NCBI GenBank assembly: GCA_965197475.1
Contig: CBDANF010000003.1
Span: 160,001-224,000 of the forward strand
Length of the DNA stretch: 64,000 nucleotides
Direction of reading: 5' to 3'
Source of the DNA: Candidatus Poribacteria bacterium
GTDB taxonomy: Bacteria; Poribacteria; WGA-4E; WGA-3G
Shown here: one piece after another, positions 7,883 through 51,482 of the stretch
Layout: each line of letters begins with the position of its first letter
Position numbering within the stretch: the stretch's first letter is position 1
Translations under genes and position numbers: made by a program
The notes under the pieces: generated by a model
What the model was told of the DNA's origin: nothing
Database searches by the model: none
The model's input: only the letters and a program-made list of their open reading frames with translations

Positions 7883-7956
7883 TAATTACTATTCCCTATC
7901 TGCTGCTAACGATTTGAGTTTTGCGAGTGCCTCCTGCTCCTCTGTTTGCCACGGAC
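7883..7956 (-). repeat. Leftover 3' tail of the phyH-like gene (copy of 10633-10706)
   Basis: 66/74 nt identical; encodes PWQTEEQEALAKLKSLAADRE* vs native PWQTEEQEALAKLKSLTADRE*. Confidence 0.95.
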
Positions 7957-7993
7957 AGTGCGCGGGTTTTTCTCATGTTCCTTTTGCATGTAA

Positions 7994-8374
7994 CTAATTT
8001 TCTGCTATCTGTGTCGATGTGTTTTGTGTCTCTAACACATCGGTGTACGCTTCAAGGTTTAGGTTTTCAGGGTCTATCGGTTGGATCGAAAGTTGATAGC
8101 CAAGCACTTTAAGGACAACTGTAAGAACATCAATCAAAGGTGTCCCTTCATTAGATAGGACTTTCGCAAGCACTTGTGGGTCCATATCTGTCTGCTTTGC
8201 CAGTTCAGAAACACCACCCTGCGCTTCAACAACGGTATGGAGAGATCTTAGAACTACTGGCGAATCCTCAAAAATTTGATAGTCTTCAAGGATAGCTTGG
8301 AGATAGTTAATTGCGCTTTCTCTGTCAGCAAGTTTTTCAATAAGGTACTCGCGCCATATTCCCATTTTTCTCAC
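7994..8374 (-). CDS. Addiction module antidote (HTH antitoxin)
   Basis: YLQAILED...[19 protein letters not shown]...LSNEGTP; GTG start overlaps the toxin stop. Confidence 0.8.
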
Positions 8375-8513
8375 TGATGTGTCTCCTTGTATTCTTGCCA
8401 ATATATTTTTGCCCGTTCAATATCACGCGTTTGTGATGACTTGTCTCCACCACATAATAAAAGAACGATTGTGTTCCCTACTTGTCCAAAATAGATTCGA
8501 TAACCTGCTCCAA
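8371..8513 (-). pseudogene. RelE/HigB-type addiction module toxin, 3' half only
   Basis: [39 protein letters not shown]; 5' half replaced by a phyH fragment. Confidence 0.85.
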
Positions 8514-8557
8514 TCCGAGACATCCACATCATCAGTGACCAAGCCATGCACAAGTGG
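8514..8557 (-). repeat. Internal 44-bp fragment of the phyH-like gene (copy of 10859-10902)
   Basis: 38/44 identical with all 6 differences at third codon positions; encodes [14 protein letters not shown]. Confidence 0.92.
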
Positions 8558-8713
8558 AGGACATGGGAGGTCCGCGCAAGCGCGGGAAGAAGTCTTCCTA
8601 AATGAGATATAACATATTAAAAATGGTATAAGCATTATTCTTACGCCAATTCATTTTACAATCAAGGTTCGGTTGGATTTATTGTATTGCATTGTTAGTC
8701 CTTTTATTGCATT

Positions 8714-9184
8714 TTAAAATGTCCATTTTTCTCTTTCCATGAATCCCTGCAAGTTAGTAAATGGAACTCCAAAATGGTCGCAAACATTTGGTATTTTAGG
8801 AGCGTTAGGTTTCTCTTTTTCTTCAGTGACAACACAGCCGTTTATTGTTTTGGCTAAGGCAATGATGAATGGATCGGCACACGGGTATCCAGCTAAGCGA
8901 TTTTTCTCATTTACTAAGTTTTGGAAATGTGGTACCAAGAAAATTTGCCTAACAAAGTGCGTTTCTGCAGCACTCGGTTTCACGAAAATGCTTTTATGCC
9001 GTTTTATCCAATCAGATAAATGAGGACGCCGTGTGTACCGTTGTAGTTCCCTTTCAACTTCCTTTACAGAGATAATCTTTCCATCTTTCACTGTTTGATC
9101 GAAATATTGCCAAAAAGTTGGGAATTGGTTCGGGTAATAATTACCAAGTACACTGAAACTATTGGTGTCAAATACGTAGATCAT
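8714..9184 (-). CDS. DUF4411-family PIN-like protein
   Basis: YVFDTNSF...FPTFW...ADPFIIALA...VVTEE...KIPNVC. Confidence 0.85.
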   Translation of the reverse strand: MIYVFDTNSFSVLGNYYPNQFPTFWQYFDQTVKDGKIISVKEVERELQRYTRRPHLSDWIKRHKSIFVKPSAAETHFVRQIFLVPHFQNLVNEKNRLAGYPCADPFIIALAKTINGCVVTEEKEKPNAPKIPNVCDHFGVPFTNLQGFMEREKWTF

Positions 9185-10341
9185 TTGCGAACTGCCTTTC
9201 TGAGCAGGCAGTCTTCAAGCCCAGATAAATTTTTAACCTTGACGTTTAGATGCTCTGAAAGTTGTTCAATCGTGCATTGCCCCTGGTAAAACTTGCTAAA
9301 GGCAAGTTCCATATATCTCGGACCTAAATATGCTGTTTGCGTATTGTAATAGCCTCCTCCACCTGGAGATTCATCTCCAGTTCTTTGTTCTCTATGTGAT
9401 TCATATAATGCTGTCCATCCCTTTATTTTCTGCAGATAAATTTCATTCGTAAGAATCCCCTTATTGACTAACTTTAACAAAATGACTGGACGACTAACTT
9501 TATAAATACTTGCCAATTTTTCTACAGTATCATCATCGTAATCAGGAAACTTAAGGTGAGATTCTAAGTCATCAGATGGCACAAGAAATTCAGCAGCAAA
9601 TTGGTTACAGAATGTCTCAATTTTTTCACCTGTAGGGTTAATGTCACGGGTAATCCCGTTTTTTCCAAGTAACAGGTGTGCTAATTCATGGAACAAAGTA
9701 AAAATTTGTCGGACTGCTGGTCGACTATTATTGAGATAGATTACTGGAAACACATCATGTACAAGGCAAAATCCATCAACAGAATTATCTTTAAATGCAT
9801 CTTTAAAAATGAAAATACCTTTTTCCTGAATACATTCACGCCAATTTTCCAATGCTTCTGTGGGATTTTTCCAATTTGTTTGTTGGTCGACACTGATGTT
9901 CAGATACACTCGAGTCTGTTTTGCTAATTCCAAAGGTGAATCATTAAGCTGGGCGTGAAAGTCTCTAAAAATTTGATTTTCAGATGGATTTTTACCCAGG
10001 CTGAGTTCCATCAAGGAAAGTTGTCGTGTATAAGCTTGTCGCAATAGAATATGGATTCTCGGTTCTAATTGATCAACGTCAGAACTTCGCAGTGCAAGAT
10101 TCTCAGCAATATTTTCTTCTTCCGGAGGTTCAGGAAAAAAGAAAATAGCTACAGGACGCTTGTACTTATCAGCTAAAGTTTCAAGTTGAGCATAAGTCAG
10201 TGCCAGATTGCCAGACTCACATTCATTGATGAATGAAATATCTTTACTTAAAGTTTTGGCAGCCGCTTCCAAGGAATAACCGGAACGTTCGCGTGCCCAT
10301 TTGAGGATTTCAGGATTAATCCCATCAACATACTCAGCCAT
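9181..10341 (-). CDS. XRE HTH + ImmA/IrrE metallopeptidase fusion
   Basis: INPEILKWARERSG HTH; FTLFHELAH HExxH; E..CNQFAAEFLVP. Confidence 0.9.
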   Translation of the reverse strand: MAEYVDGINPEILKWARERSGYSLEAAAKTLSKDISFINECESGNLALTYAQLETLADKYKRPVAIFFFPEPPEEENIAENLALRSSDVDQLEPRIHILLRQAYTRQLSLMELSLGKNPSENQIFRDFHAQLNDSPLELAKQTRVYLNISVDQQTNWKNPTEALENWRECIQEKGIFIFKDAFKDNSVDGFCLVHDVFPVIYLNNSRPAVRQIFTLFHELAHLLLGKNGITRDINPTGEKIETFCNQFAAEFLVPSDDLESHLKFPDYDDDTVEKLASIYKVSRPVILLKLVNKGILTNEIYLQKIKGWTALYESHREQRTGDESPGGGGYYNTQTAYLGPRYMELAFSKFYQGQCTIEQLSEHLNVKVKNLSGLEDCLLRKAVRK

Positions 10342-10638
10342 GATAGTAGCCTCAATATGTAAGCAATTTTTTAAATGCGATCAAGAGAAATAGACTATAC
10401 TTACATAAATTGAAATAAACTTCAGTTAAATATATTATAACCTAATATATAGTTTTAATCAATTGTTTGGTACAGGGTTTTTATTGCCCACCTCCGGTTG
10501 CAAACCGAGTTTCATTGATTTTCCTTATCCTGCGATACCTGCGGATGGATTGTCCTTTCGTTTCGCGGTGCCGTGTCTGTAATCTTGGACCTCTTTTTTT
10601 GTGAACGGCACACGGCGTGTGCCTACTACTTTTAATTA

Positions 10639-11442
10639 CTATTCCCTATCTGCTGTTAACGATTTAAGTTTAGCCAATGCCTCCTGTTCCTCCGTTTGCC
10701 AGGGACGTTCTGCCGGGTTATCCAATTTCTGATGCGGACCGCTGAAGACGAGGATATATGCCCTACGCGCTTGTGCAGTGCTGTTAGGAGCAGAATAGTG
10801 TAAAGTCCGACAGTGATGGAACGTAGCACCGCCTGCTGGTATCGGACAAGCAACCGCTTCCGAGACATCCACATCATCGGTCACCAAACCGTGTACAAGC
10901 GGCTCGTCGTTGATATGACGATGCCAACGCACGTCACCTTTATGAGATTTCGGAATAAATTGCATACATCCGCTCTCAATTGTCGCTTTGTCAAGCGGAA
11001 GCCATACACTCAAACTATGCGGCAAGACTGTCGGATTCCAGTATGCCTCGTCCTGATGCCACGGCGTTTCGTTGCCGTAGTGCGCAGGCTTCAAAATCAT
11101 GTGGCCACCACCACCAACCTTTTCCATTTCTACACCGAGCAGTTTCGCAGCGAGTCTTTGTGCATTTTGGAAATAGATAGATTCGCGGAGTTCTGGAAAT
11201 TGCCCTTCTGGACCTAGTACTTGCGGTAACGTTTCTTTTCCGCTGTGCGCACGGGGACCAGCAAGATCAAAGTAGCGTCCCTGCTCTTCTCCTGTCCGTT
11301 CAGTGAAGAGTTCATCGTAAATGCCTTTGAGCCATTCGATCTCTTCATCGGTTGTGATGCGTGGAATACTCAGATATCCGTTCTCTTGAAAAAAGGCAAC
11401 CTGATCGTCGGTTACGTCAACGTGAAAGTTATTGGTTTTCAT
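10639..11442 (-). CDS. Phytanoyl-CoA dioxygenase (PhyH) family Fe/2OG oxygenase
   Basis: FFQENGY, TPWHQD, SVWLPLD..TIESGCMQFIPKSH, TLHYSAPN, RRA. Confidence 0.92.
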   Translation of the reverse strand: MKTNNFHVDVTDDQVAFFQENGYLSIPRITTDEEIEWLKGIYDELFTERTGEEQGRYFDLAGPRAHSGKETLPQVLGPEGQFPELRESIYFQNAQRLAAKLLGVEMEKVGGGGHMILKPAHYGNETPWHQDEAYWNPTVLPHSLSVWLPLDKATIESGCMQFIPKSHKGDVRWHRHINDEPLVHGLVTDDVDVSEAVACPIPAGGATFHHCRTLHYSAPNSTAQARRAYILVFSGPHQKLDNPAERPWQTEEQEALAKLKSLTADRE

Positions 11443-11446
11443 AAAA

Positions 11447-13270
11447 TCATCGAATTAAAATATCAAAAGGTAAGGCTGTGACGACTCGCTCGTTTTCAAA
11501 TAGGGTTAACCATGTTATTATCCGATGCCATTGCGTACTAAACATAGGAATTGCTGGATGCCGCTGTGCTAACTGCAAAGGTAACGGCACTGAAATTCCC
11601 GCATCCTCTTCAAGCATGCGCTCTAAGAATTGCTCAAAAAAGGGTTTCTGTTCTGGTAGCACGATGATGTCAAATCTATCTTCATCTGTAAATCCCGCTT
11701 TTTCCTTAGCGATAGACAACGCAGTATCAAGTCCTCCGATTTCATCAACGAGACCGAGTTCTTTTGCCTGTTTTCCGGTCCAGACTCGCCCCTGTGCGAC
11801 TGCATCAATTTCATCGTAAGTCTTATTCCTACCCGATGCTGCCTTATTGACAAAATTTTCATAGACCGTCTTCATCATCTTTTCAACACGTTCGCGTTCT
11901 GTCGGCGAAAAACCTCCATAGTCTGAATAGAGCGTGGCGTTTTGGCCATGCGCGATAATCTCTTTTGTCAAACCGATTTTGTTATAGAGTCCCTTCAGAT
12001 TGAGTTTTCCACCGTAGACCCCTATTGAACCAGTAAGCGTTGCGGGTTGTGCAACGATTGTTCCGGCTGCCATTGATATATAATAACCACCAGAGGCAGC
12101 CATATTTGCCATAGATACGATGACAGGTTTTTCACGTTGTGTCAGCATCACCTCTCGCCAAATCATGTCAGACGCGATCGCAGAGCCACCCGGACTATCC
12201 ACGCGTAACACGACCGCCTGAATAGCATCGTCAGAACGCGCTTTTTGAAACGCTTTCTTTAACGTTTTCGGTGTAATCATAGACATTGTGGCAAAAGGCG
12301 AGTCAAAATCGGGTAAAATGGGACCGCTTGCATAGATGAGCGCGATCTGATTATCTGCGGGACGAGCCTTTGCACGCTGTGGTGGATTAAACATACTGAA
12401 CAACTGCATCATTCCCGCAAAACTATTCATATCCGGTATTTTTCGTTTCTTTTCACCGTCTTGTGTGACAACCTGTACCTCTCCCTCTGGTGCCGCTTTG
12501 ATCGCATCCAAGAGTTCATCGTAGTATTGTAATACATCAACGAGCTTTGATTCATGTGCCTCCTTCGCAGTAAAGGGACCACGATCTATTAACTCGGCTG
12601 CAATCTCAGAGGTAATCTCCTCTCTACCCTCGGCAATTTTCTCCAACATTTGGGCATACAAGTCATCAAGCAAACCTGTCATTGACTCACGGAAGGCATC
12701 TGACATGCTGTCGCGCGTGTAAGGTTCAATACCTGATTTGAATTTTCCCATTGCGAGCATATCAGCCTCAATATCCAGTTTTTCCAAAAATCCTTTGTAG
12801 AAAAGAATTTCTGCGCGTAAACCGGTTAGATTGAGACTTCCGGTGGGCATCAGAACGATTTGATCCATCGCAGCAGCGAGGAGGTATTGGGCATTCCCCC
12901 CACTTTCAAGATAGCCGATCATCTCTTTTTCTGCATCGCGAAGTTCACCTAATTTATTTCGGACTTCTTGAAGGCTTGCCCACCCTATACCGACATTCCC
13001 GATTTTGAAGATAATAGCATCCACTTCATCATCATTTTTGAGCGCGTCCAGTTTCTTGAAAAGTCCACGCAATGTTTTCGTTGAAGCGGTGCCAAAAAAA
13101 CTTATCTCTTTAGTATCGGAAAAGGTGCCACTTAATGTGAATTCAACGTATTTTTTGATAGGTGGTGCTGCTTCTTCTTCGGATTGTTCCTGAGCGGACA
13201 GTGGTAGGACGAACAGGAGGACCATAAGCAGAAATGTTGCTGTCTGCCAGAAGTTTTGTAATGGTTTCAT
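11447..13270 (-). CDS. sppA: Signal peptide peptidase SppA (67K type)
   Basis: LRVDSPGGS, AASGGYY, TGSIGV, AQGRVWTG. Confidence 0.92.
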   Translation of the reverse strand: MKPLQNFWQTATFLLMVLLFVLPLSAQEQSEEEAAPPIKKYVEFTLSGTFSDTKEISFFGTASTKTLRGLFKKLDALKNDDEVDAIIFKIGNVGIGWASLQEVRNKLGELRDAEKEMIGYLESGGNAQYLLAAAMDQIVLMPTGSLNLTGLRAEILFYKGFLEKLDIEADMLAMGKFKSGIEPYTRDSMSDAFRESMTGLLDDLYAQMLEKIAEGREEITSEIAAELIDRGPFTAKEAHESKLVDVLQYYDELLDAIKAAPEGEVQVVTQDGEKKRKIPDMNSFAGMMQLFSMFNPPQRAKARPADNQIALIYASGPILPDFDSPFATMSMITPKTLKKAFQKARSDDAIQAVVLRVDSPGGSAIASDMIWREVMLTQREKPVIVSMANMAASGGYYISMAAGTIVAQPATLTGSIGVYGGKLNLKGLYNKIGLTKEIIAHGQNATLYSDYGGFSPTERERVEKMMKTVYENFVNKAASGRNKTYDEIDAVAQGRVWTGKQAKELGLVDEIGGLDTALSIAKEKAGFTDEDRFDIIVLPEQKPFFEQFLERMLEEDAGISVPLPLQLAQRHPAIPMFSTQWHRIITWLTLFENERVVTALPFDILIR

Positions 13271-13322
13271 TTTGTCTCCTTACGGACGGGCATGATGGCA
13301 CCGCCACTACGGTTTTTGTTTT

Positions 13323-13351
13323 ATTTTATAACAAAACGGGGATTGTGTCAA
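13323..13351 (-). promoter_or_regulatory. Sigma70-type promoter of sppA
   Basis: TTGACA-17-TAAAAT on the minus strand. Confidence 0.6.
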
Positions 13352-13429
13352 CTAAAAATGGAAGGGATTCAGGGTCTTGAGTTTTCCTATAGCGGACAGA
13401 TAATTTTTCTGAACAAGTGAAAATCGCAA

Positions 13430-14737
13430 TTAAACAGTTGACTTTCTCAAAATGAGCAAAAATTCTGACTTCATCCCATCAGGGTTCTTATTCTTCCGCA
13501 CACCGAACAGTTGCCGCGTTTTAATCCTATCTTCATAAACTTTTTCAAACCTGAAACCGCGTTCCGTCCAGTATTCTGTCAATATTCGCCACAGTTCAAC
13601 CGTTATACCATCAATACGTGGATTACCAACGAAAATACAGGCGGCTGCGTTCGGTTTCAATCGATTCATCGAATTTTCAAGTGCGTTTAGCGTATGGCAA
13701 AAATAGGAGTCAAGCCGCTTATGCAAGTCTGTACGAGTGAGTTTTTCCCTGACTTTATCCAATGTTTCGGTGTGAATTGTCCTATCTGCTTTCCGATACG
13801 GGATTTCAAGACGTGATAATGCCTTTATTTCCTCATCAGTGTGTCCTAACCAAAAGAGGTCCATCTTTGTAGAGCGGATATATTCCTGTGCTTGGAGATA
13901 GGGAGGCGATGTGATTAATGCGTCACATTCGCGTGGCACAGTAATGTAAGAGGAATCAACACCTCCCTGAAACTCAACCTGATTTTGATGATGTTGCGTG
14001 TGCATCACAAAGTCGTTAAGGCTTCTTAACGTTTTCAAAGAATGGTCGTACACTATCTCTATTAACTGCTCCTTCCAATTCTCGCTGAGCAATTCTTCTA
14101 TCGCCGCTAATTTACGCTTGGATCTGGCTAATTTTGGCGTTCTATGCTCGGTGTAAGAGAAACGTTTGCTTACCTTCAGCAGTGCCGATTTGATAATACC
14201 GGAATAGATGTCTTGTTCTATGCTGTAGATATAACCCCAGTATTGCGATAAAAACTCCAAAATTTCAGGTGCGTACCAGTATTGGACATTAGACCAAGCG
14301 GGGATAAAACGGTGCTTTTTACTTTCTTTCATGCTGTCAAGCAATTTACATAAATGGTCTTTACACAACCGTTCTTTTCCGCGGTAAACCTTCAGCGGCA
14401 TGATGTGATTCAAAAGTAGGTTGAGATCGAGTAGCACAGCATTGCGTTTGCATAGGGACGCTTCAACGCCCACAGTTCCTGAACCTGCGAACGGATCCAC
14501 AATCCAATCCCCTTCCTTTGTGTAGGTGTTGATTGCATATCTGACGACTTGGGGGATAAATTTCGCAGGATACGATACGATGGCGTGTGTCAAGTAGCCG
14601 GTATCGGAAATTTCTGGCACTAAATCCCGGAACGACACTAATTCCACCGTGTCGGATGTCGCATTCTCTTTCGGGAATCCAAATTCAGTATCTATGGGAA
14701 AAAGCGTGAATTGTTCTTCCAGATTAAGGTTTTTCAT
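13430..14737 (-). CDS. Orphan DNA methyltransferase (N4-C/N6-A class)
   Basis: YPAKFIPQ, DPFAGSGT, ITSPPY. Confidence 0.85.
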   Translation of the reverse strand: MKNLNLEEQFTLFPIDTEFGFPKENATSDTVELVSFRDLVPEISDTGYLTHAIVSYPAKFIPQVVRYAINTYTKEGDWIVDPFAGSGTVGVEASLCKRNAVLLDLNLLLNHIMPLKVYRGKERLCKDHLCKLLDSMKESKKHRFIPAWSNVQYWYAPEILEFLSQYWGYIYSIEQDIYSGIIKSALLKVSKRFSYTEHRTPKLARSKRKLAAIEELLSENWKEQLIEIVYDHSLKTLRSLNDFVMHTQHHQNQVEFQGGVDSSYITVPRECDALITSPPYLQAQEYIRSTKMDLFWLGHTDEEIKALSRLEIPYRKADRTIHTETLDKVREKLTRTDLHKRLDSYFCHTLNALENSMNRLKPNAAACIFVGNPRIDGITVELWRILTEYWTERGFRFEKVYEDRIKTRQLFGVRKNKNPDGMKSEFLLILRKSTV

Positions 14738-14791
14738 CAGCTACTTACGAGGTTATAGAGATAGTTTAACTTGCACGCTGTGTCAAAAAGG

Positions 14792-15991
14792 TTATTGCGA
14801 TTCTTCTCCCACTTCTTTCGCTCTTTCAATTTCTTCCTCAGTCAATTGGAAATCAAACACATCTTCCTCTTCTTCTGTTGCTTCCGTTTCTGTATCTGGC
14901 GGGGTAACCTGCTGCACTTCATCTGTGGGTTGCGCTGCCTCCTGAGTTTCAAGTTTTGGCGCAGTCGCACCAAGGATCGTCAATCCCACAATTGCCACAA
15001 CACAAACACTTGTCACCGTCATCGCAACCGGACGTTTCCAGAGAACTTTGCGCTCACTTCTGTCTAAGAAGGGGAGGAATAGCAGTAGCAACATGCCGAC
15101 TGTCGGAATTATAAACGTCCCAAGAATTTCAAAAGGACCTTGGAAGTATTTCAGCAGTTGAAACAGGAAAAGGAAATACCATTCGGGTCGTGGATCGTAA
15201 TTTGCGTTCGTCGGGTCAGCAACATCTTCAAGTGGAACGGGTGCGAACAACGCAGCGCAGGCGAGTATTACAAAGAGAATTAGCATGCCGACAACGTCTT
15301 CAAATACTTGGTCTGGATAGAACGGTTTTCCCGTTTTCATTTCCTCTGGTGTGTTCTTCGGTAGACCTGAGGAACCGTAGAACCTGACAAAGAAGAGGTG
15401 TACGCCAACTAAACCGAAAGCCAACCACGGCAGCCAGATTGTGTGTAATGCGTAAAACCGCGATAGCGTCACCGCGCTAACCTCAGCACCGCCACGCATA
15501 ACCTTTGCGACTACATCGCCTAACACAGGCGCAGTGCTTGAGATTTCAATCCCGACAACCGTTGCCCAATACGCTTTTTCGTCCCACGGCAGCAGATAAC
15601 CTGTAAATCCGAAACCGAGGGTAACTAAGAACAAGAGAACACCGACGACCCACGTGAGTTCACGCGGTGCCTTGTATGATCCATAAAGCACAACTCGGAG
15701 TATATGCAGAAAGACGAGAATAACCATCGCACTTGCCCCCCAGTGGTGCAAGCCTCGTACGAACTTTCCGAACGGCACCTCTTCACTGATATAAGTTACC
15801 GCATTATGGGCATGGTCTGGTGAAGGAGAATAGGATAAGGCTAAAAATGCCCCCGTAGCAGCTTGAAGCAAAAGTAAGAACATCGCCAAACTACCGAGTG
15901 AAAAAAGCAGATTGATATGTTTAGGCAGCGGTTTGCGCAGATGCGCCATCACCCCATCTAACGAGAGGCGATCGTTGAGAAATTGCTTCAT
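14792..15991 (-). CDS. petB: Cytochrome b subunit of a bc-type complex (b6 + subunit IV fused)
   Basis: RGLHHWGAS, GFTGYLLPWD, RFYALH, PFYP, PEWYFL. Confidence 0.9.
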   Translation of the reverse strand: MKQFLNDRLSLDGVMAHLRKPLPKHINLLFSLGSLAMFLLLLQAATGAFLALSYSPSPDHAHNAVTYISEEVPFGKFVRGLHHWGASAMVILVFLHILRVVLYGSYKAPRELTWVVGVLLFLVTLGFGFTGYLLPWDEKAYWATVVGIEISSTAPVLGDVVAKVMRGGAEVSAVTLSRFYALHTIWLPWLAFGLVGVHLFFVRFYGSSGLPKNTPEEMKTGKPFYPDQVFEDVVGMLILFVILACAALFAPVPLEDVADPTNANYDPRPEWYFLFLFQLLKYFQGPFEILGTFIIPTVGMLLLLFLPFLDRSERKVLWKRPVAMTVTSVCVVAIVGLTILGATAPKLETQEAAQPTDEVQQVTPPDTETEATEEEEDVFDFQLTEEEIERAKEVGEESQ

Positions 15992-16459
15992 TTACGCCTC
16001 CTTTACATATAAAACGCCAGCTTCTATTTTGACTTCGAGTTTCTGCAACGGTTCCGGTGGCGGACCAGCAACAACAGCTCCGTTCTTATCAAATACAGCA
16101 CCGTGGCACGGGCAGAGGAAAGATTCTTTACTCTCGTCCCATCGGACAAGGCAACCGAGATGTGAGCATGTCCGTGAAAAGACGTTCCACTCCCCGTTAC
16201 CCATATCCGTCACGTAGACAGAACGTTTTTTCGTGGCTTTCACCCAACCATCTTTCGCTGTAAACGTATAATTGACCTTTTTGAAGCGGCTGTTTTTGAG
16301 ACGGTCTACTAAACCCAAGTCAACCCATTGCGATTCGCCTTTTTTCCACGCAGGCGAGATCGCAAATCCGATCAATGGGATACCTGCTGCTAAACTCACT
16401 AATCCACCAATGCAGGCGGTGGCGATTTGTAAAAAAGAGCGTCTACCCTCTTCTGACAT
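15992..16459 (-). CDS. Rieske 2Fe-2S subunit
   Basis: Tat-like RRSFL; CSHLGC and CPCHG motifs; GPPP. Confidence 0.92.
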   Translation of the reverse strand: MSEEGRRSFLQIATACIGGLVSLAAGIPLIGFAISPAWKKGESQWVDLGLVDRLKNSRFKKVNYTFTAKDGWVKATKKRSVYVTDMGNGEWNVFSRTCSHLGCLVRWDESKESFLCPCHGAVFDKNGAVVAGPPPEPLQKLEVKIEAGVLYVKEA

Positions 16460-16571
16460 CCGATTTCTCCTTCGTAACAATATAAATTTTAGGTATCAAC
16501 TTAGCAATTTGTATTTTGGAGATAATTATATCACAATTCCAATATTTAAAGAAGAGATTCACAAATCAAAG

Positions 16572-17023
16572 CAGAGCCATTCAATTTTCAAAATACATAT
16601 TGTTGTATAGGTTATCATCATGTGTGGCCTGACTTTTCACGCCACACATGATGGACTTCACCTTAGAGATTAGTCTAAAATCATTTGAGGTGAAAAATGA
16701 CAAAACAAAAGTCTCGTCATCTACTTGAAATGTTAGCAGAAGTTCCTGATTCTCGTAAGTCACAAGGCAAACGTCATCCGCTCCCAGTCATTTTAGGTCT
16801 CACGGTTGTTGCAATGCTGTGTGGGTATCGCAGTTATAGTGCTGTTGAAAAGGACACGGTTGGATACAAACACGCACGCTTACTGCCAGCACCGCCCTCA
16901 CAGACTATTTGGCATGCCCGGGGCCTGCACAAGGAAATAGCATATTCACTCCGATATTTTGCCTCACTTCCAGAGGAAGCACTCAAACTCATCGGGATAG
17001 ATACCGAAAATTGAATGGCTCTG
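16572..17023 (+). mobile_element. Internally deleted ISAs1-family element
   Basis: Perfect 18-bp terminal inverted repeats cagagccattcaattttc (16572-16589 / 17006-17023); ORF 16697-17014 starts LAEVPDSRKSQGKRHPLPVILGLTVVAMLCG and has no DDE core. Confidence 0.85.
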
Positions 17024-17114
17024 CAAAAAATGTTTGATAAAGGTTTAGGTTTTAAGTATAATATTAGGGTAGGCAAGCAAACTCCATTATTTTCTATTAT
17101 TGAAGGAAACGATT

Positions 17115-19977: not shown

Positions 19978-20345
19978 ATGAAACGTACAACTGTTTTTGT
20001 CAGCACTATCTACCTTCTATGTGTTCTCATCACGGCAGGTATTTCAGAAGGTGCCCAACATTAGAAGTCGCGCAACTTTCACACATAGGAAATATCTGCG
20101 GTAGCCATCCCAATTTGAATCAAAAAATGAGTCCAAGTCATCGTCCAGATTTCCGTGGCAGTACACGATTGGACCTCTTGATTTCAAGCAACCTACTCAT
20201 ACCGAAAGGTACATTTGCAGGTCAACGTCTGGCAGTTGAGTTTCATCTCCCCATCGTTCAACATTTTGAAGGAATACAACTCAAAAACAGATGGCAGATT
20301 ACGCTTGGTTGGCAATATGCCTTCTTTAGGGCAAATAGCCACTAA
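19978..20345 (+). pseudogene. Signal-peptide stub followed by the 3' end of an outer-membrane transporter-like gene
   Basis: MKRTTVFVSTIYLLCVLITAGISEGAQH*, then GNICGSHPNLN...RLDLL...GQRLAVEFHLPIVQHFEGIQL...ITLGWQYAF. Confidence 0.5.
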
Positions 20346-42979: not shown

Positions 42980-43041
42980 TAACCTATAATAATTAACATC
43001 CGTTGATAGTGCCATTTGGTTTCTAAAAATGCTAAAATATT

Positions 43042-43070
43042 TTGACATGAAAGAGAGAATATGCTATAAT
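43042..43070 (+). promoter_or_regulatory. Consensus sigma70 promoter upstream of guaB
   Basis: TTGACA-17-TATAAT with extended -10 TG. Confidence 0.8.
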
Positions 43071-43210
43071 TTATTATAATTGGCGATACGTGTTTTTAGG
43101 ACAACATTAGCGAGCCTTTTCACCCACCTCAATCCGCATTATAGTAGATTTTAGAATTACTTGGACATTGTTATCGGTCCAGTTGGGAAACAGTTCCTAC
43201 CGCATATTTT

Positions 43211-43266
43211 GTAGCACAAACTTTTAGTTTGTGTCGTCCTTGCGCAAACTGAAAGTGGACGCTACA
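43211..43266. repeat. REP-like hairpin element in the guaB leader
   Basis: gtagcacaaacttttagtttgtg ... gcaaactgaaagtggacgctac. Confidence 0.5.
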
Positions 43267-43299
43267 GCAGTGTCCAGATAATTACAGATTTTACTATAA

Positions 43300-44817
<1,518 letters not shown>

Positions 44818-44857
44818 ACTATTGAGACTCAGTAAGTCAAGCAAAGGGAGAAAAACG

Positions 44858-45961
44858 ATGAAAATCCGTATTGAAATCCTCACAACTTTACTATTGACGA
44901 CCGTTACTCTGCTCGCTGGCTGCTCTGGCTGCGGACAGAAAACCGCCCCCGAACACGCAGACCCTTATAACCAAGCAGAACACGGACCCGTCGCGGCGAA
45001 TAGCCGAAAGCCCGTAAAACTAACCATTGTTGAACCGAGTTTTGAGAGACTGATAGAACAGTTCAAAGCAGATGTCACTGAAAATAAGGGGGACCCAGAG
45101 ATGCTCAAACGCAAAAGAAAAGCAATTGCCAACCCCGATATACTGTGGGATGGCATCGGATTTGAGGTGCCCCCCACACTAAATTTCGATGAAATCCCAA
45201 GACTGCCGGGCTACAATCCAACACGCGATAAGATAAAAGTCCGCTCTTATTCTGAAAAAGGAAAACCTATACACGGGGTCTATGATCATGACAAAGAAGT
45301 GTATCCTTTTGCGGGCAAAGTTATCTACAAAACAAAAGATCAAGAGGAGAGGTTGGATGCTGTACGGCAAAACTGGAGGCATTTGAATCCAAATTCCGAC
45401 CCAGATGATACTAACTACTATCGAAAACGTGCTCCGATTGTGTATGAGGGAATAGATACACTCATTGCTGCAAAACATCTGAGTCAAGCGTTTAGCCCTG
45501 CTAAAAAAGCTCTTGGCGTTGAATATGCGGAGCGTGCAATACGTGAAAATCCGAACTCTGTTGAAGCGATGCGTATTTGGGTCAAATGCCATCCTGAAGA
45601 TCAAAAGATTGAGGCATACCAACAGCTGCTTTCAAAGTTCCCCAACGATGCGTTTGCTCACGAGCAAATCGCCGGCTACTACTACCGCGAAGAAGATACG
45701 GTTTCCGCCCTGGACCACATGCTGAAGGCTTGTCTGTTAGATAGTCGTATCGCGAAAACGAATGACTTATTAGCCAAATGTTATTTCAAACTCAGTGAAT
45801 GGGAGAAAGCCGTTGCTGCGTATCAGGGCATGGATTATTTTGTCAGTCCGAATTTTCTCTTTGAGAGTCCTGACAAAATAACTAAAGCCAAAGATGAGGT
45901 GCATAAGCAGCGAAAAGGGTATTCAGTTATAGAATTAACACAAGAAGGATATGACAAATGA
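44858..45961 (+). CDS. Variable TPR lipoprotein A1
   Basis: Lipobox LLAG-CSGC; C-terminal TPRs; paralog of A2-A4. Confidence 0.85.
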   Translation: MKIRIEILTTLLLTTVTLLAGCSGCGQKTAPEHADPYNQAEHGPVAANSRKPVKLTIVEPSFERLIEQFKADVTENKGDPEMLKRKRKAIANPDILWDGIGFEVPPTLNFDEIPRLPGYNPTRDKIKVRSYSEKGKPIHGVYDHDKEVYPFAGKVIYKTKDQEERLDAVRQNWRHLNPNSDPDDTNYYRKRAPIVYEGIDTLIAAKHLSQAFSPAKKALGVEYAERAIRENPNSVEAMRIWVKCHPEDQKIEAYQQLLSKFPNDAFAHEQIAGYYYREEDTVSALDHMLKACLLDSRIAKTNDLLAKCYFKLSEWEKAVAAYQGMDYFVSPNFLFESPDKITKAKDEVHKQRKGYSVIELTQEGYDK

Positions 45962-46101
45962 AATATCGCATTTCTGTTTTGACATTGTTTAGTGTGCTGA
46001 ATCCGTCCGCTGCGGATGGTCCACCGAGTGTTTCTATAGAGTCAGCGAATTTGGATGCGTATAATGGGTGGTTACCGAGAAAGCCATCCGCACGATATTG
46101 A
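45958..46101 (+). pseudogene. 5' stub of secreted protein B, type 1
   Basis: MKYRISVLTLFSVLNPSAADGPPSVSIESANLDAYNGWLP, then runs out of frame into the guaB tail. Confidence 0.7.
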
Positions 46102-46150
46102 TATTACGGAGGAAGCACCGAACTATACGGTTGCTAACCTTGCTACATAA
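46070..46150 (+). repeat. guaB 3' tail copy 1 (81 bp, matches 44737-44817); similarity continues through the intergenic spacer
   Basis: Encodes [26 protein letters not shown]. Confidence 0.95.
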
Positions 46151-46190
46151 ACTGTTGAGACTCAGCAAGTCAAGCAAAAGGAGAAAAACA

Positions 46191-47300
46191 ATGGAACTTC
46201 GTATAGAAAAGTTCTTAACTTTATTTATGATCGCGATTATATTCCTCGCGGGTTGTTCGGGGTGTGCACAAAAAAACGCTCTAAAAGGGATTGAACCGAC
46301 CAAGGATTACAACGAACAATCTAAATACGGACCGGTCGCAGCGAACACGCGCAAACAGGCAAAACTAAAGCCTTTCCTTGAACCGAGTTTTGAGAACCTT
46401 ATAGAACAGTTCAAAGCCGATGTCAAAGCCAACCGCGGTGACCCTGAAGTCCTCGCTCGCAAAAAACAGGCGATAAAGAACCCTAATTTGCTATGGCGAC
46501 CTTCATTTCGAGTCCCGAAAAAAAACAGGCAAAATCCGAGAACTTATCCTGAATATAATCCCTCTGCCGACGAGATCAGAATCCTAACCCATAATAAAAA
46601 AGGGGAACCATTACGCGCCAGATATTTCGATCATCCAGGTGTTCCTAACGGTCTTGAGATTGAATTCACAGGCAAAGCCTATTACCTCACGAAAGAACAG
46701 GAAGAAAGAATGAAATTAGTTTTACATTCAGACGATCTTCCACAAGATGAGCGACAACGTGAATATTATAAAATTATGTTTGAGGGTATAAATACGTTTA
46801 CAGCTGCAAAGTATTTGAGCAAAGAGACTTCCAGTATTGCAGAAACCATAGGTCTTGAATACGCTGAACGTGCCATGCGCGAACACCCAAACTCTCTTGA
46901 AGCTATGCATCTTTGGGCTAAATGCGTTCCATGGGAACCTATAGAAAATAAAAGAGATGCGTATGAAAAGTTATTGACGAAGTTTCCTAACGATGCCTCA
47001 GCACATTCTATACTTGGTTTCATATATTGGTCTCGTCTGGACTCTCCTGAGTTAGCCATCCCGCATTACCAAAAATCTATTCAACTTGATAGTCGTGGCG
47101 AAGCTGGCAAAAAGCATTGGTTAGCTTTCTGTTATGAGAAACTTGGAGAATATGAGAAAGCGGTCGCAGTCTATCAGAGCATCTCTGTAGTAGACACATA
47201 CGGTCCTCGTGGTTATATGATCCCTATGTCATTAAATTACGTACAAGACGTGGTATATAAACAACGAACAGGTCGTTCCTTTTATGACTTAGACGATTAG
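46191..47300 (+). CDS. Variable TPR lipoprotein A2
   Basis: Lipobox FLAG-CSGC; EPSFENLIEQFKADV, EYAERAMREHPNS, TPRs. Confidence 0.85.
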   Translation: MELRIEKFLTLFMIAIIFLAGCSGCAQKNALKGIEPTKDYNEQSKYGPVAANTRKQAKLKPFLEPSFENLIEQFKADVKANRGDPEVLARKKQAIKNPNLLWRPSFRVPKKNRQNPRTYPEYNPSADEIRILTHNKKGEPLRARYFDHPGVPNGLEIEFTGKAYYLTKEQEERMKLVLHSDDLPQDERQREYYKIMFEGINTFTAAKYLSKETSSIAETIGLEYAERAMREHPNSLEAMHLWAKCVPWEPIENKRDAYEKLLTKFPNDASAHSILGFIYWSRLDSPELAIPHYQKSIQLDSRGEAGKKHWLAFCYEKLGEYEKAVAVYQSISVVDTYGPRGYMIPMSLNYVQDVVYKQRTGRSFYDLDD

Positions 47301-47311
47301 GAGGGTATTGA

Positions 47312-47758
47312 ATGAAAAAATACTATCTCACAATTTTACTTTTCACATTACTCCCGTTTGCACACGCACAAAACGTCTGTATAGAACCAATGTGGGACAC
47401 GTTTAATCAGTGGTTGCCTGAAGATGGGGACACGGTCACTTTTCTTGTGACCGTCTCGGAGGCAAGGTCCAAAGGGTCGATTGTATTAAATCTGACCAAT
47501 GTATCTACTTGGGAAGGGACATGCATGAACAAAGGGACAGGCGACGATGCTGATCTATACTTTACCAGAACAGATCAGGTATTAGCGGGTAGGATTCGTT
47601 CTGCTATGGGATATTGTGGCACGCCAGATATTGAGTCGTTACGCAGAGATGTCCAATTTGTCCGTATGTCAAGCAGCGGTTACAGAGAAAGCCATCCGCA
47701 CGATATTGATATTACGGAGGAAGCACCGAACTATACGGTCGCTAACCTGAACACATAA
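47312..47758 (+). pseudogene. 5' stub of secreted protein B, type 2, fused in frame to the last 55 codons of guaB
   Basis: Signal peptide ...FAHAQNVCIEP..WLP..; from 47592 IRSAMGYCG...VANLNT*. Confidence 0.85.
47592..47758 (+). repeat. guaB 3' tail copy 2 (167 bp, matches 44651-44817)
   Basis: 7 nt differences, 5 of them synonymous. Confidence 0.97.
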
Positions 47759-47798
47759 ATTGTTGAGACTCAGTAAGTCAAGCAAAGGGAGAAAACCG

Positions 47799-48897
47799 AT
47801 GAAAATCCGTATTGAAATCCTCACAACTTTACTATTGACGACCGTTACTCTGCTCGCTGGCTGCTCTGGCTGCGGACAGAAAACCGCCCCCGAACACGCA
47901 GACCCTTATAACCAAGCAGAACACGGACCCGTCGCGGCGAATAGCCGAAAGCCCGTAAAACTAACCATTGTTGAACCGAGTTTTGAGAGACTGATAGAAC
48001 AGTTCAAAGCAGATGTCACTGAAAATAAGGGGGACCCAGAGATGCTCAAACGCAAAAGAAAAGCAATTGCCAACCCCGATATACTGTGGGATGGCATCGG
48101 ATTTGAGGTGCCCCCCACACTAAATTTCGATGAAATCCCAAGACCGCCGGGCTACAATCCGACACGCGACGAGATAGTCATCCGCTCTCCTTTTGAAAGA
48201 GGTAAACCTATACGCGGGGTCTATCATCCCTGTGGAACATGACAAAGAAATATATCCTTTCGCTGGAAAAATTATCTACATCACAAAAGAGCAAAAGGAA
48301 AGGAAGGATGCTGCGCGCCAAAACTGGCATAATGCGAATCCGAACTCAAGAGCGGATGTTGACTATTACCGAGAACAGTATGCGATTACATTTGAAGGAA
48401 TAGACACACTCACAGCAGCAAAATATTTGAGTCAATTCAGTGATCCTAATCATCCCAGCACAAAAATTATCGGCATTGAATATGCAGCGCGTGCGATGCG
48501 TGAGCATCCGAACTCTGTTGAAGCGATGCGTATTTGGGTCAAATGCCATCCTGAAGATCAAAAGATTGAGGCATACCAACAGCTGCTTTCAAAGTTCCCC
48601 AACGATGCGTTTGCTCACGAGCAAATCGCCGACTACTACTACCGCGAAGAAGATACGGTTTTCGCCCTGGACCACATGCTGAAGGCTTGTCAGTTAGATA
48701 GTCGTATCGCGAAAACGAATGACTTATTAGCCAAATGTTATTTCAAACTCAGTGAATGGGAGAAAGCCGTTGCTGCGTATCAGGGCATGGATTATTTTGT
48801 CAGTCCGAATTTTCTCTTTGAGAGTCCTGACAAAATAACTAAAGCCAAAGATGAGGTGCATAAGCAGCGAAAAGGGTATTCAGTTATAGAATTATAG
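47799..48897 (+). CDS. Variable TPR lipoprotein A3 (frameshift in a C run at about 48230; last codons cut by IS630)
   Basis: Both ends near-identical to A1, middle divergent. Confidence 0.8.
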
Positions 48898-49801
48898 TAA
48901 ATCCCGTAATTACTTATACACTTTTATAATATCATCAATAGAAGTCTGAGCATTATATTGACGTATCCGCTTGATGTTGGCGAAATCCTTCTCAATCGGA
49001 TTCAACTCCGGTGAATACGGCGGTAAAAACAACAAACTCGCACCGCAATCCCGGATCAATGCTGCCGTCTGTGAACCTTTGTGGAAAGACGCATTATCCA
49101 TAATCACAACATGGCTATCGTCAAGCAATGGACACAACATTTCCGAAAGCCAACTGTTGAAGGCGATCACATCGCAACTGCCCTTGAAAAGCACAGGTGC
49201 TGTGAAACATCCATCAAGCCGTGCCGCAATCAGCGTCGTGGTGGTATACCGATGGCTTGGCACTTTATCTTCAACACGGACACCTTTCGGGCATAAGCAT
49301 ACCGACGGAAAGTGGTTTCAGTGAAACCACTTTCGTCAAGATAAACCGGTTTTTTGCCATGCTCCTGTGTCTCTTGTTGAAGTGCCGAAAGATACTCTTG
49401 GCGTTTTATCGGACACTGTTCTTTGTAGGTCGTTGTCTTTTTTTTCGCGTAATATTGAGTTTTGAGAAGGCATAAAAGATGCCGTTTGTTGAAACACCGA
49501 AGTGTTTGGCACGTTCGGCGAGTGTGCTATCGGGAAAATCGGCAACATGTTATTGAAGCGCATCATAATCAATGTGTCGGGGCCCTTTGGGACCCGGCTT
49601 CTCATAGGCAAAGGGGTTTTCTGCTTCTAACCAGTTATAGATCGTCCTTCTTGAGACACCGAAGGTGCGTTCTGCGGCGGCTTTACTGCCACCATTATTG
49701 ATGAAATCAAGCACGCTTTTGCGTCCATCTGTTGAATATGCCATAATCATAAAGGCTAACATAAATCACAGAAAATGTAAACTTATTTTCAGGATCTACT
49801 A
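48895..49801 (-). mobile_element. IS630-family element, probably defective
   Basis: Imperfect 26-bp IRs tagtaaatcc.../...ggatctacta; TA duplication at 48893-94 and 49802-03; MAYSTD..., LDESGF, MDNASFH, LPPYSPELNPIE; A8G slippery site at about 49440; in-frame TAA at 49550. Confidence 0.92.
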
Positions 49802-49823
49802 TAAGACAAGAAGGATATGACAA

Positions 49824-49967
49824 ATGAAATATCGCATTTCTGTTTTGACATTGTTTAGTGTGCTGAATCCGTCCGCTGCGGATGGTCCACCGAGTGTTTC
49901 TATAGAGTCAGCGAATTTGGATGCGTATAATGGGTGGTTACCGAGAAAGCCACCCTCACGATATTGA
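49824..49967 (+). pseudogene. 5' stub of secreted protein B, type 1 (second copy)
   Basis: Matches 45958-46069 with the same junction. Confidence 0.75.
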
Positions 49968-50016
49968 TATTACGGAGGAAGCACCGAACTATACGGTTGC
50001 TAACCTTGCTACATAA
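49936..50016 (+). repeat. guaB 3' tail copy 3 (81 bp)
   Basis: Same as copy 1 except CAT CCG changed to CAC CCT (both His-Pro). Confidence 0.95.
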
Positions 50017-50056
50017 ACTGTTGAGACTCAGCAAGTCAAGCAAAAGGAGAAAAACA

Positions 50057-51088
50057 ATGGAACTTCGTATAGAAAAGTTCTTAACTTTATTTATGATCGC
50101 GATTATATTCCTCGCGGGTTGTTCGGGGTGTGCACAAAAAAACGCTCTAAAAGGGATTGAACCGACCAAGGATTACAAAGAACAATCAAAATACGGACCG
50201 ATCGCAGCGAACAGTCGCAAACCGGCAAAACTGCCCCCGTTCCCCGAACCGAGTTTCGAAAACCTGATAGAACAGTTCAAAGCGGATGTCGCAGCGAACC
50301 GTGGTAATCCGGGAGCATTGGAACGCAAACGAAAAGCGATTGCTAATCCCAATATTTTAGATTGGCCCTTCTTTGTCTCTGCTGGTGATTACAAAAAAGG
50401 GGAACAACCACTGTCTAAATTATACAGATATGAGACTATCACTATCAAAACAACAGCGGAACAAGAGAAAAGACTGGATGCCTTAAGGTCAGAGGAGCTC
50501 CCATCTGATGTACACAAACGAAAAAGAAACGAGATTTATTTTGGGGGTGTTGATACCCTTACCGCTGCAAAGTATTTTATGACGCGTGGCAGTAGAAATG
50601 CCTCCACCTATGGGGTTGAATATGCCGAGCATGCCATGCGCGAAAATCCAAATTCCGTTGAAGCTATGCACGTCTGGGCGAGATGCAGCAGCAACACTAA
50701 GGACAAAGAAAAGGGAATTGCGGTATTCCGCAAGATGCTGTCCAAGTTCCCGAACGCTGCCGCAGCCCACATTGGACTCGCACAGAATCTCTTTTATCAG
50801 GCTCTGAAGGTTCAAAGGGAGTTTGGTGCTGGTTCTCATATAAATCTTGTGGAAGAAGCACTTCACCACACACAGACAGCGATACAACTTGACAGCCGCA
50901 TCCCACGGTATAACTACTTATTAGCGCGGTGTTATTTTGAACTGGGAGAATGGGAAAAGACGCTTATTGTCTACCATGGAATGCCTTCTATTGGTATGGG
51001 AGCTGCTTTTAATTTGACATTTCAGAGAGCTCATGGAAATCTCGCGAAACAAAGGGGTGAATATTCTCTCTTTAGAGGGACTGAATGA
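50057..51088 (+). CDS. Variable TPR lipoprotein A4
   Basis: N-terminus near-identical to A2, remainder divergent; TPRs. Confidence 0.85.
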   Translation: MELRIEKFLTLFMIAIIFLAGCSGCAQKNALKGIEPTKDYKEQSKYGPIAANSRKPAKLPPFPEPSFENLIEQFKADVAANRGNPGALERKRKAIANPNILDWPFFVSAGDYKKGEQPLSKLYRYETITIKTTAEQEKRLDALRSEELPSDVHKRKRNEIYFGGVDTLTAAKYFMTRGSRNASTYGVEYAEHAMRENPNSVEAMHVWARCSSNTKDKEKGIAVFRKMLSKFPNAAAAHIGLAQNLFYQALKVQREFGAGSHINLVEEALHHTQTAIQLDSRIPRYNYLLARCYFELGEWEKTLIVYHGMPSIGMGAAFNLTFQRAHGNLAKQRGEYSLFRGTE

Positions 51089-51172
51089 TAAAGATGCTCT
51101 CCTCTGCATAATATTTGTGGGCGCAATTTTAATCTATAAACCCATAATAGAAAACAATAATGGATAAACAAT

Positions 51173-51482
51173 ATGAAAAATTATTATCTCACTATTTTAT
51201 TTTTACTGTTTACATCACTCCCGTTTGCCCACGCACAAAACGTCTGTATAGAACCGTTAAATAAAACAGAGTTTAATGCGTGGCTACCTGAAGATGGGGA
51301 CACGGTCACTTTTCTTGTGACCGTCGCAGGTGCCCAATCCACAGGTTCCATCGAGTTAAATCTTACCAATGTATCTACTTGGGAAGGGACATGCATGAAC
51401 AAAGGGACAGGCAACGATGCTGATCTATACTTTACCAGAACAGATCAGGTATTAGCGGGTAGGATTCGTTCTGCTATGGGAT
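51173..51482 (+). pseudogene. 5' stub of secreted protein B, type 2, plus the start of guaB tail copy 4 (51462-51482), cut by IS3
   Basis: MKNYYLTILF...WLPEDGD...DQVLAG-RIRSAMG. Confidence 0.85.

Follow-up and report, generated by a model that had tools for sequence, protein, structure and literature searches.

Many defence islands and variable surface loci sit at fixed hot spots between core genes without mobile machinery, and how they grow is debated. The loci considered here lie in a stretch of 64,000 nucleotides (the window, G000:C3:160001-224000) from the genome of a Candidatus Poribacteria bacterium, a member of a group of uncultured sponge symbionts. In the window two core genes, guaB on the plus strand and a phyH-like dioxygenase gene (phyH) on the minus strand, are each followed by accessory cassettes punctuated by copies of the core gene's own 3' end, hereafter called orphan tails, an arrangement pointed out in a first-pass annotation and borne out by significant blastn matches. 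The reading that we favour, with more confidence than doubt, is that the tails are scars of a recombination-driven, integrase-independent accretion of accessory cassettes at core-gene ends, one that probably does not run mainly through homology-facilitated illegitimate recombination (HFIR) at every step.

The closest parallel is a process reportedly termed 'insertion with long target duplication' by Nobusato et al. 2000. In the cases treated in the cited passages of Furuta, Abe & Kobayashi 2010 (PMC2853133), restriction-modification (RM) genes are flanked by long, variable direct target repeats without mobility genes; most cases come from naturally competent species, and the mechanism was left unresolved there, with DNA breakage caused by RM systems proposed as a driver. 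The Poribacteria loci resemble the cases described in those passages in having an inserted block shorter than 20 kb and no mobility gene, repeats of tens to hundreds of base pairs that vary in length, allow amplification and in some instances overlap the 3' end of a gene, and a single copy at the empty site. The direct repeats are longer than 30 bp relative to the empty site, measuring 84-90 nt at phyH, where a relative (G040) is empty, and 81 and 178 nt at guaB; the blocks are below 20 kb and carry no integrase or transposase of their own, an IS3-family insertion sequence (IS) and a 914-bp element in the guaB array being secondary. The cases in the cited passages are defined by RM genes and are mostly single insertions, whereas the cassettes here are mostly non-RM, stacked and located at core-gene ends. 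Homologues of R and M genes, as in the 2010 definition, were not found together inside the blocks, whose cargo consists of toxin-antitoxin (TA) and defence genes or of TPR lipoproteins. Unlike the cases in those passages, the present loci also hold orphan copies that diverge at synonymous sites only and combine parts of different alleles, a sign of homologous recombination with alleles of foreign origin.

Displacement of rhs C-termini offers a second parallel, and for it the cited part of Jackson et al. 2009 (PMC2935791) proposes homologous recombination with circular intermediates and no integrase. There, laterally transferred ends recombine at a conserved upstream sequence and older ends are pushed into downstream arrays of 'tips', much as older cassettes would be pushed downstream here; as set out in that part, however, the anchor is the toxin gene's own core and the cargo is a C-terminus with its immunity gene, whereas the present anchors are unrelated housekeeping genes followed by independent genes. 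The anchor proteins are not rhs or contact-dependent inhibition (CDI) toxins: they include IMP dehydrogenase (IMPDH), a PhyH-family dioxygenase, the ATP synthase epsilon subunit, Ldh/Mdh, NAPRTase and others. Arrays of type VI secretion system (T6SS) effector and immunity genes in Vibrio cholerae, for which the cited section of Kirchberger et al. 2017 (PMC5361080) proposes HFIR and draws a parallel with integrons without an integrase, are likewise said there to grow by sequential insertion beside a conserved upstream region, with one homologous anchor, so that older genes shift downstream. Those arrays displace the old effector and keep only its immunity gene, and core-gene tail copies are not their hallmark in that section; competence, moreover, is an established trait of V. 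cholerae, and Poribacteria have not been cultured. In HFIR experiments recipient DNA is usually lost. A homologous anchor combined with an illegitimate join could have made the first junction of each class at the present loci, which differ from an HFIR pattern in showing a handful of junction classes that are reused; HFIR is orders of magnitude rarer than homologous recombination, according to the section cited (PMC5361080). Integrons and integrase-borne islands at gene 3' ends share with these loci the ordered cassettes, the arrival of the newest at a fixed entry point and a repeat between cassettes. They differ in that the present loci possess neither an integrase, intI included, nor anything resembling attC, and that their crossover point is not fixed, the repeats between cassettes being core-gene coding sequence; there is no linked integrase, and guaB and phyH each have four junction classes.

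The literature search, which did not cover supplements, found no description of this arrangement in Poribacteria. The arrangement forms no new category, being a variation on three known themes: insertion with long target duplication, rhs displacement and arrays ascribed to HFIR. What sets it apart is the combination of housekeeping anchors, mixed cargo, the involvement of both gene ends, many loci in one genome and tails with direct sequence evidence of renewal from functional alleles.

The genome, G000, is a metagenome assembly of 5.70 Mb in three contigs (C1 to C3) with a completeness of 92.7% and a contamination of 7%. Its gene content includes PSD/PSCyt proteins, sulfatases and many TPR, WD40, LRR and fn3 proteins, and homologues of the cassette proteins, at 75-94% identity, were found in Candidatus Poribacteria metagenome-assembled genomes. 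The last and first 300 nt of each of 4188 non-overlapping open reading frames (ORFs) of at least 120 aa were compared with the whole genome, keeping copies on the same strand, at most 20 kb away, with at least 80% identity over at least 40 nt, that reached the stop (or start) codon, had their other edge inside the 300 nt and were not the end of a comparably long ORF. This yielded 38 orphan tails from 29 anchor ORFs, 29 of the 38 lying downstream of the intact gene (binomial p 0.0017), together with 29 orphan heads, of which 24 lay upstream of the intact gene (binomial p 0.0005). Some of the anchors are themselves fusions of a gene stub with a tail, so there are fewer loci than anchor ORFs; recognisable intact anchors stand at at least 12 loci. 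They include guaB, phyH, atpC (on C3 and on the foreign-strain contig C1), the genes for Ldh/Mdh, NAPRTase, a TrxB-like protein, a 2-hydroxyacid dehydrogenase, a PEP-hydrolase-like protein (two tails), a PSD/PSCyt protein, a TPR-LamG protein and a sigma-54 response regulator, and gene Y on C2. The first-pass annotation had proposed that the architecture is general, and the further downstream tails that it called for were found both in this genome and, for phyH, in nine of 17 genus genomes. The phenomenon is not confined to 3' ends, gene heads being duplicated as well, upstream and in mirror image. Its two weaker candidates in the window fell away, one (19978-20345) having a best match to the upstream gene of just 31 nt (E 0.016) and the other (55331-55365) yielding nothing beyond 44 nt that match the neighbouring gene at 75%, in its 5' flank and not in its tail.

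Among the cargo are genes for defence or of toxin-antitoxin type, which follow phyH and atpC, and genes for variable repeat proteins (TPR or WD40), which follow guaB and the PEP-hydrolase-like gene; several cargo ORFs had no family match. At atpC the cargo includes a PD-T4-4_A-like ATPase gene with a Uma2 nuclease gene, and on C1 an extra 308 nt and a new tail lie between atpC and the same cargo as on C3, which would represent the next stacking step. Contig C1 (32,385 bp) is a patchwork, 78-92% identical to several places on C2 and C3 and, beyond 12.6 kb, syntenic with C3 1.603-1.622 Mb; it is probably DNA of another strain binned into G000. Behind the PEP-hydrolase-like gene lie genes for a pair of WD40 paralogues that share 76% aa identity; a Type ISP enzyme is encoded directly after its second tail, and the 5-codon stub that precedes its tails matched no neighbouring gene start. 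A second array of guaB tails without an intact guaB was found at about 335-346 kb on C2, where six tails of four classes lie among genes of the A family (the TPR lipoprotein genes of the guaB array); on either side of it stands one copy of a 404-nt direct repeat, the copies being 96% identical and taking in the 3' end of another gene. The surrounding region (330001-350000, L011) places this array between two blocks, each made of a gene tail and a 420-aa protein with four fn3 domains, with identical Pfam scores.

On the minus strand the phyH locus reads phyH, HTH-M78, DUF4411, a 44-nt phyH piece, a toxin remnant, an antitoxin and a phyH tail (Table 1). The last of these corresponds to the final 84 nt of phyH plus 6 nt past the stop codon (blastn E 1.9e-20), and the HI1420-type antitoxin gene accompanied by a phyH tail occurs in several relatives. 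In the 44-nt piece all six differences from phyH fall at third codon positions; its left junction is common to the relative G038 (L027), while its right side is cut by the join into the toxin gene, of which a full-length version at a relative's locus (L021) matches PF05973. At the join of phyH codon 195 to the toxin gene only a few bases are shared. The Type IIG RM gene, present in some relatives and absent from others, sits beyond the last phyH tail. An earlier suggestion that each tail is preceded by a truncated gene start holds at guaB, where two kinds of stub (C and B) are found, and fails at phyH: the 'ATG AGA AAA' at 7975 is part of the right end of the higBA cassette, a segment conserved in every relative compared, and therefore cannot be called a truncated gene start, nor does it match the start of the flanking gene downstream, whose first letters are ATGAATATT. 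The present arrangement could have arisen from a state like that of G003 (phyH - higB - higA - tail) by receipt of a G038-like module (M78 - DUF4411 - tail from codon 181), followed by a further illegitimate join at G000 of phyH codon 195 into the middle of higB.

The guaB array consists of two tandem units of about 3 kb (44640-47612 and 47581-51482) and the first 32 nt of a third. The longest of its tails lies within a 261-nt match to guaB (95.0%, E 2.9e-95), and the two 81-nt tails lie within 161-nt matches (86%, E 1.6e-44 for the first; 85%, E 8e-43 for the second); the phyH and guaB tail matches are far beyond chance. The two units are mosaics: from the last part of A1 through the C stub and the 81-nt tail to ~120 nt into A2/A3 they are 98-100% identical, and through the body of A2/A3 identity falls to 39-68%. 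A segment of 139 nt that includes the second C stub (49802-49940) is 99.3% identical to 45936-46074, and A1' is 95-96% identical to A1 (92-100% except for one patch of 66-69%). Contigs of runs X10 and X12 lack one base at 48233, so the frameshift that splits A1' is either absent from other populations or a consensus error. The ATG of the C stub overlaps the stop codon of A1 (ATGA, 45958-45961), which makes translational coupling between the lost C gene and an A gene probable.

The ORF at 51173-51805, previously taken for an intact B gene, resolved into a B stub, a guaB piece of 32 nt and part of the IS3 element, and the 32-nt guaB-like patch is neither an att core nor a chance match but a class 99/100 guaB tail cut by IS3 at 51483. 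Likewise the segment 48891-49804, earlier regarded as cargo, is a repeat element that recurs on C2 and C3 in at least 15 copies of at least 880 nt (93-97% identical) and whose short ORFs (plus strand, 48971-49324; minus strand, 48910-49263) had no Pfam match; the IS3 element has 20 other copies of at least 98.4% identity, both counts being taken among the first 25 matches listed. Both elements break into units of the array and are secondary to it. The near-identity of the IS3 copies points to a recently active IS. Retention of the tails as a promoter for the A genes, situated in the last 81 nt of guaB, was considered and dropped: a sigma-70 scan, uninformative for this phylum, found none there, and its counts were those expected from shuffled sequence.

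Table 1 Features of the phyH and guaB loci (positions in the window) and gene stubs at relatives' loci
Feature	Position	Strand	Evidence and remarks
Type ISP/IIG restriction-modification enzyme, further island cargo	4664-7765	-	PF18135, PF22240, PF02384; PADLOC REase_MTase_IIG
Orphan phyH tail, codons 241-267, stop, +6 nt	7883-7972	-	75/90 nt, 22/27 aa identical
Cargo 2, HI1420-type antitoxin (HigA-like)	7994-8374	-	PF21716
Gp49/HigB-type toxin gene, 3' 47 codons, 5' half lost	8371-8513	-	read from sequence
Orphan phyH fragment, codons 181-195	8514-8557	-	38/44 nt, 14/15 aa identical, E 2e-8
Cargo 1b, DUF4411 protein	8714-9184	-	PF14367 E 4e-33
Cargo 1a, HTH + M78 (ImmA/IrrE-type), RmrA-like	9181-10341	-	PF06114 + HTH; PADLOC RmrA E 5.6e-24
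phyH-like dioxygenase, intact core anchor	10639-11442	-	PF05721 E 1e-33
guaB (IMPDH), intact core anchor	43306-44817	+	PF00478 E 5e-154
A1, TPR lipoprotein cassette, lipobox LAGC	44858-45961	+	TPR matches; start and signal peptide read from sequence
C stub, first ~37 codons (112 nt, signal peptide) of a secreted-protein gene, joined to guaB tail	45958-46069	+	
Orphan guaB tail, 81 nt, junction class 196	46070-46150	+	6 differences, codon positions 1/1/4
A2, TPR lipoprotein cassette	46191-47300	+	44% aa identity to A1
B stub, N-terminal ~90 codons of a secreted protein, in frame with next guaB tail	47312-47580	+	
Orphan guaB tail, 178 nt, junction class 99/100	47581-47758	+	10 differences, positions 3/1/6; stop codon kept
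A1', copy of A1, frameshifted near 48233	47799-48897	+	
Multi-copy repeat element, 914 bp, inserted in unit 2	48891-49804	.	
Second C stub copy (49824-49935) and 81-nt guaB tail (49936-50016)	49824-50016	+	
A3, TPR lipoprotein cassette	50057-51088	+	39-45% aa identity to A1 and A2
Second B stub (51173-51450) and 32 nt of guaB (51451-51482), start of third unit, cut by IS	51173-51482	+	
IS3-family insertion sequence; orfA 51562-51852, orfB 51858-52688	51483-52727	+	PF01527 (HTH_Tnp_1) in orfA; rve in orfB
5' stubs of the 364-aa gene, ~20-80 codons, upstream of the intact gene	relatives' loci L022, L023, L030, L035, L036		

Taken by itself, the guaB array invites a simpler account, in which tandem duplications in situ of a segment running from the gene tail through the downstream genes to the head of the next gene were followed by divergence, deletions, IS insertions and some gene conversion, with no need for foreign DNA. 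The fusion of stub and tail is the canonical novel joint of such a duplication, the array reads as two-and-a-bit units of ~3 kb, and the cargo of both the guaB and the PEP-hydrolase-like arrays is paralogous. We nevertheless judge this account unlikely, though it is the rival to be taken most seriously. The identity between units is not uniform, swinging between 39 and 100%; the cargo bodies share 39-45% aa identity, against 90-94% nucleotide identity for the adjoining tails; and the stacked cargo at phyH is unrelated (M78-DUF4411 versus higBA).

The divergence of the tails bears on the same choice. Differences by codon position between 14 guaB-derived fragments (from G000 and G003) and their own genome's gene amounted to 20/14/127, of which 131 were synonymous and 30 replacement changes, giving a ratio of replacement to synonymous differences (pN/pS) of 0.067, as compared with 0.01-0.09 between true orthologues and with the value of at least about 0.5 that a neutrally decaying duplicate should approach, the latter being our own estimate without a fitted model. 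One tail of 234 nt had 16 synonymous changes versus two replacements. No internal stop was present in any of the 13 complete guaB tails, and all 13 had kept the stop codon. The same concentration at third positions, which the earlier reading had named as a check on its idea of old alleles left behind, was seen in eight phyH tails (14/5/52), in 16 ungapped downstream tails at other loci (35/42/97) and in the three guaB tails of the window alone (5/3/16; p 0.0009 against one third, 0.027 against a rough 0.45 null). Some tails were also closer to alleles of other species than to the gene beside them, which duplication in place would not lead one to expect: one guaB tail of G003 differs by 2.5% from the guaB of G000 and by 14.1% from its own, and a phyH tail of G000 lies 10.7% from the G006 allele (d 0.107) and 17.9% from its own (0.179), the latter ranking 13th of 16. 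Over 26 distinguishing sites the guaB tails are mosaics of G000-type and G003-type alleles with clean switch points. This pattern supports a view of the tails as pieces of what would once have been functional alleles.

Comparison with relatives placed the phyH array in a conserved setting. The phyH orthologue was found in 40 of 40 genus genomes, in a frame that runs sppA - phyH - variable part - 364-aa gene - rimK; in G040 (L024) the variable part is empty and the flanking gene follows phyH directly. Where phyH tails were detected by blastn, in nine of the 17 genomes examined, each genome had one to three, and a shorter phyH remnant was visible by eye in two of the seemingly tail-less genomes. 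The 364-aa gene on the other side shows the mirror image, its heads being duplicated upstream of it in five of 16 relatives. The phyH junctions fall at codon 181 (G000, G038), codon 241 (G000, G003, G045, G027, G007), codon 246 (G027, G044, G006) and codon 254 (G047). guaB was present in 21 of 21 genomes searched, with tails in two (G000 and G003); 11 of 13 genus genomes had guaB without tails. G003, like G000, has a second guaB-tail array elsewhere on the chromosome without an intact guaB, and a simple form occurs in G005, where guaB is followed by one A gene (A3-like, 83% aa) and a B-like gene. The genes downstream of the window's guaB array were not found within ~15 kb of guaB in nine relatives' loci, so that a two-sided empty site could not be defined. 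The guaB junctions lie at 43/44, 99/100, 152 and 196 of the last 276 nt, class 196 occurring in at least seven copies.

Cassettes are in several cases more similar between species than the core genes beside them, a further point that duplication in situ leaves unexplained. A2 is 99.2% aa identical to a gene of G003, whose guaB is 93% identical, and the HTH-M78 protein is 95.9% aa identical to its counterpart in G038, as against 85% for phyH. The M78-DUF4411 cassettes of G000 and G038 match at 95.3% (1543 nt) and 91.2% (588 nt) and share the join at phyH codon 181, whereas the core flank of the two genomes is only ~81% identical. Their adjoining 44-nt tails differ at 12 positions, the tail of G038 having no differences from its own gene and that of G000 four to six from alleles of the G000 clade; a shared junction combined with a lineage-specific tail is what would be expected if the cassette had entered by a crossover within the tail. 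The DUF4411 gene of G038 (L027 3759-4463) matches in two pieces (aa 1-40 and 27-156) and may be disrupted.

Recurring junction positions (guaB 196 in at least seven copies, phyH codon 241 in five genomes) are also what site-specific integration would give, with a trans-acting recombinase (Xer, an integrase of the tyrosine or serine type, or another enzyme) working on att sites in core-gene 3' ends and integrase-less elements accreting there, and islands that integrate into a gene's 3' end with a replacement end do leave such a tail. We regard this as very unlikely. The whole of G000, an assembly 92.7% complete, had no match to PF00239 (Resolvase) and a single one to PF00589 (Phage_integrase), at C3:2069666 and far from these loci; each gene has at least four junctions, and orphan heads repeat the pattern at 5' ends. 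The 13 junctions compared had no common motif or shared sequence, homology starting abruptly and the joints being sharp. A recurring junction, moreover, comes with the same adjoining cassette sequence, and therefore reflects one event inherited or transferred and not repeated targeting. As far as can be detected, then, the loci are integrase-free, as the first-pass annotation had put it. Its proposal of HFIR at each stacking step fared less well: the same few junctions are common to several species and cassette alleles, so illegitimate joins would be rare and most of the spread of cassettes is better explained by homologous recombination through the tail.

A scheme in two steps could account for these observations. 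In a first, rare step, an illegitimate join would connect the far end of the cargo with a site within the 3' portion of the core gene upstream of it; such a join could come from HFIR, from a circular fragment closing on itself or from tandem duplication, the joint being the same from all three. Its product would be a module made of the core-gene 3' end, the cargo, the junction and an orphan tail, and the gene would stay intact since its stop codon lies within the duplicated target. In a second step, with which the sequence patterns agree, the module, having core-gene homology on both sides, would enter a naive genome or move in ahead of older modules by homologous recombination, either as a linear fragment by a double crossover with arms on overlapping parts of the same gene end, or as a circle by a single crossover within the tail. 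The junction would travel with the cassette, and the orphan tail past the crossover would be the recipient's former functional gene end. Repeated rounds of such entry would give stacks in which the newest cassette adjoins the intact gene, recombination between tails would delete or shuffle cassettes, and at the opposite border a mirror process would leave orphan heads of the flanking gene upstream of it. Arguing for such an accretion are the polarity of tails and heads, the lack of a recombinase, the coding-like tails, the foreign alleles, the same junction with different tails, the transfer of cassettes, the empty or simple sites, the mosaic units and the atpC locus of C1.

Several points weigh against it. 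No step has been seen happening, and the homologues of competence genes are uninformative as to how DNA would have entered. The joint of stub and tail is exactly what a tandem duplication in situ makes, the guaB and PEP-hydrolase-like arrays consist of paralogous units (the A family and the WD40 pair), and duplication predicts the polarity of heads and tails equally. The tails are interrelated, so that the pooled codon counts and p values overstate their independence. A 256-nt phyH tail of G038 has six differences from its own gene (97.6% identical), spread 3/2/1 over the codon positions and so not biased towards the third, as duplication would have it; this long tail has the look of recent copying in place or of gene conversion. 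In G003 the long tails are own-type at the 5' end and G000-type at the 3' end, an orientation that is not the simplest prediction of a single insertion into G003 and would need a later cassette swap. Finally, the genomes are metagenome assemblies, and of the short contigs of other sequencing runs compared with the window none spans the array stretch.

That last point raises the prospect of an assembly artefact, with strain variants of one locus laid in tandem, for which the 7% contamination, the derivation of C1 from a strain ~78-92% identical and the lack of a read contig across the arrays could be cited. We rate it the least probable of the explanations considered, as the same junction classes recur in other species whose genomes were assembled independently, several into a single contig, and collapse of alleles would make neither the sharp joints to unrelated sequence nor the IS and the repeat element. 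Contig joints that skip whole cassettes, with sides of 26-52 nt (44736>46180 in X12 and X1, 47677>50046 in X7, 47205>51172 and 47392>51338 in X12), may be repeat artefacts and were not used as evidence.

A more specific form of the accretion scheme can be put forward tentatively, with confidence short of even: that housekeeping-gene ends are the entry points of an integrase-free cassette system of RecA type, integron-like in function and working by homologous recombination only, in which the tail is a portable homology arm renewed from the recipient's gene at each transfer. Cassettes would insert, stack, swap between the two chromosomal arrays and pop out, and the tails would stay coding-like because the arm is renewed each time from a functional gene. 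Such a system, if real, would build up defence islands as well as arrays of genes for variable proteins that interact with the host (TPR lipoproteins, WD40/LRR proteins). The competence genes whose presence the first-pass annotation had thought worth checking were indeed found in G000 (comEC with one match, the dprA family with four, and a ComM-like gene), although the same searches matched 10, 11 and 13 of 14 control genomes and do not discriminate. Four matches above the cut-off to PF02481 (DprA family) are an unusual number for one genome.

The genus offers an unusually legible record of these processes, with dozens of tails and heads, junctions common to several species and a synonymous-only signature. 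Cassette gain by recombination alone could be tested by population genomics and with a construct in a transformable model bacterium, and it is relevant to the ways in which sponge symbionts that have not been cultured generate variety in their phage defences and in their eukaryote-like repeat proteins. Elsewhere in the window, on the minus strand at 55756-56850, a gene encodes a fusion of a TIR domain with TPR repeats that is ThsB-like by PADLOC (E 8e-26).

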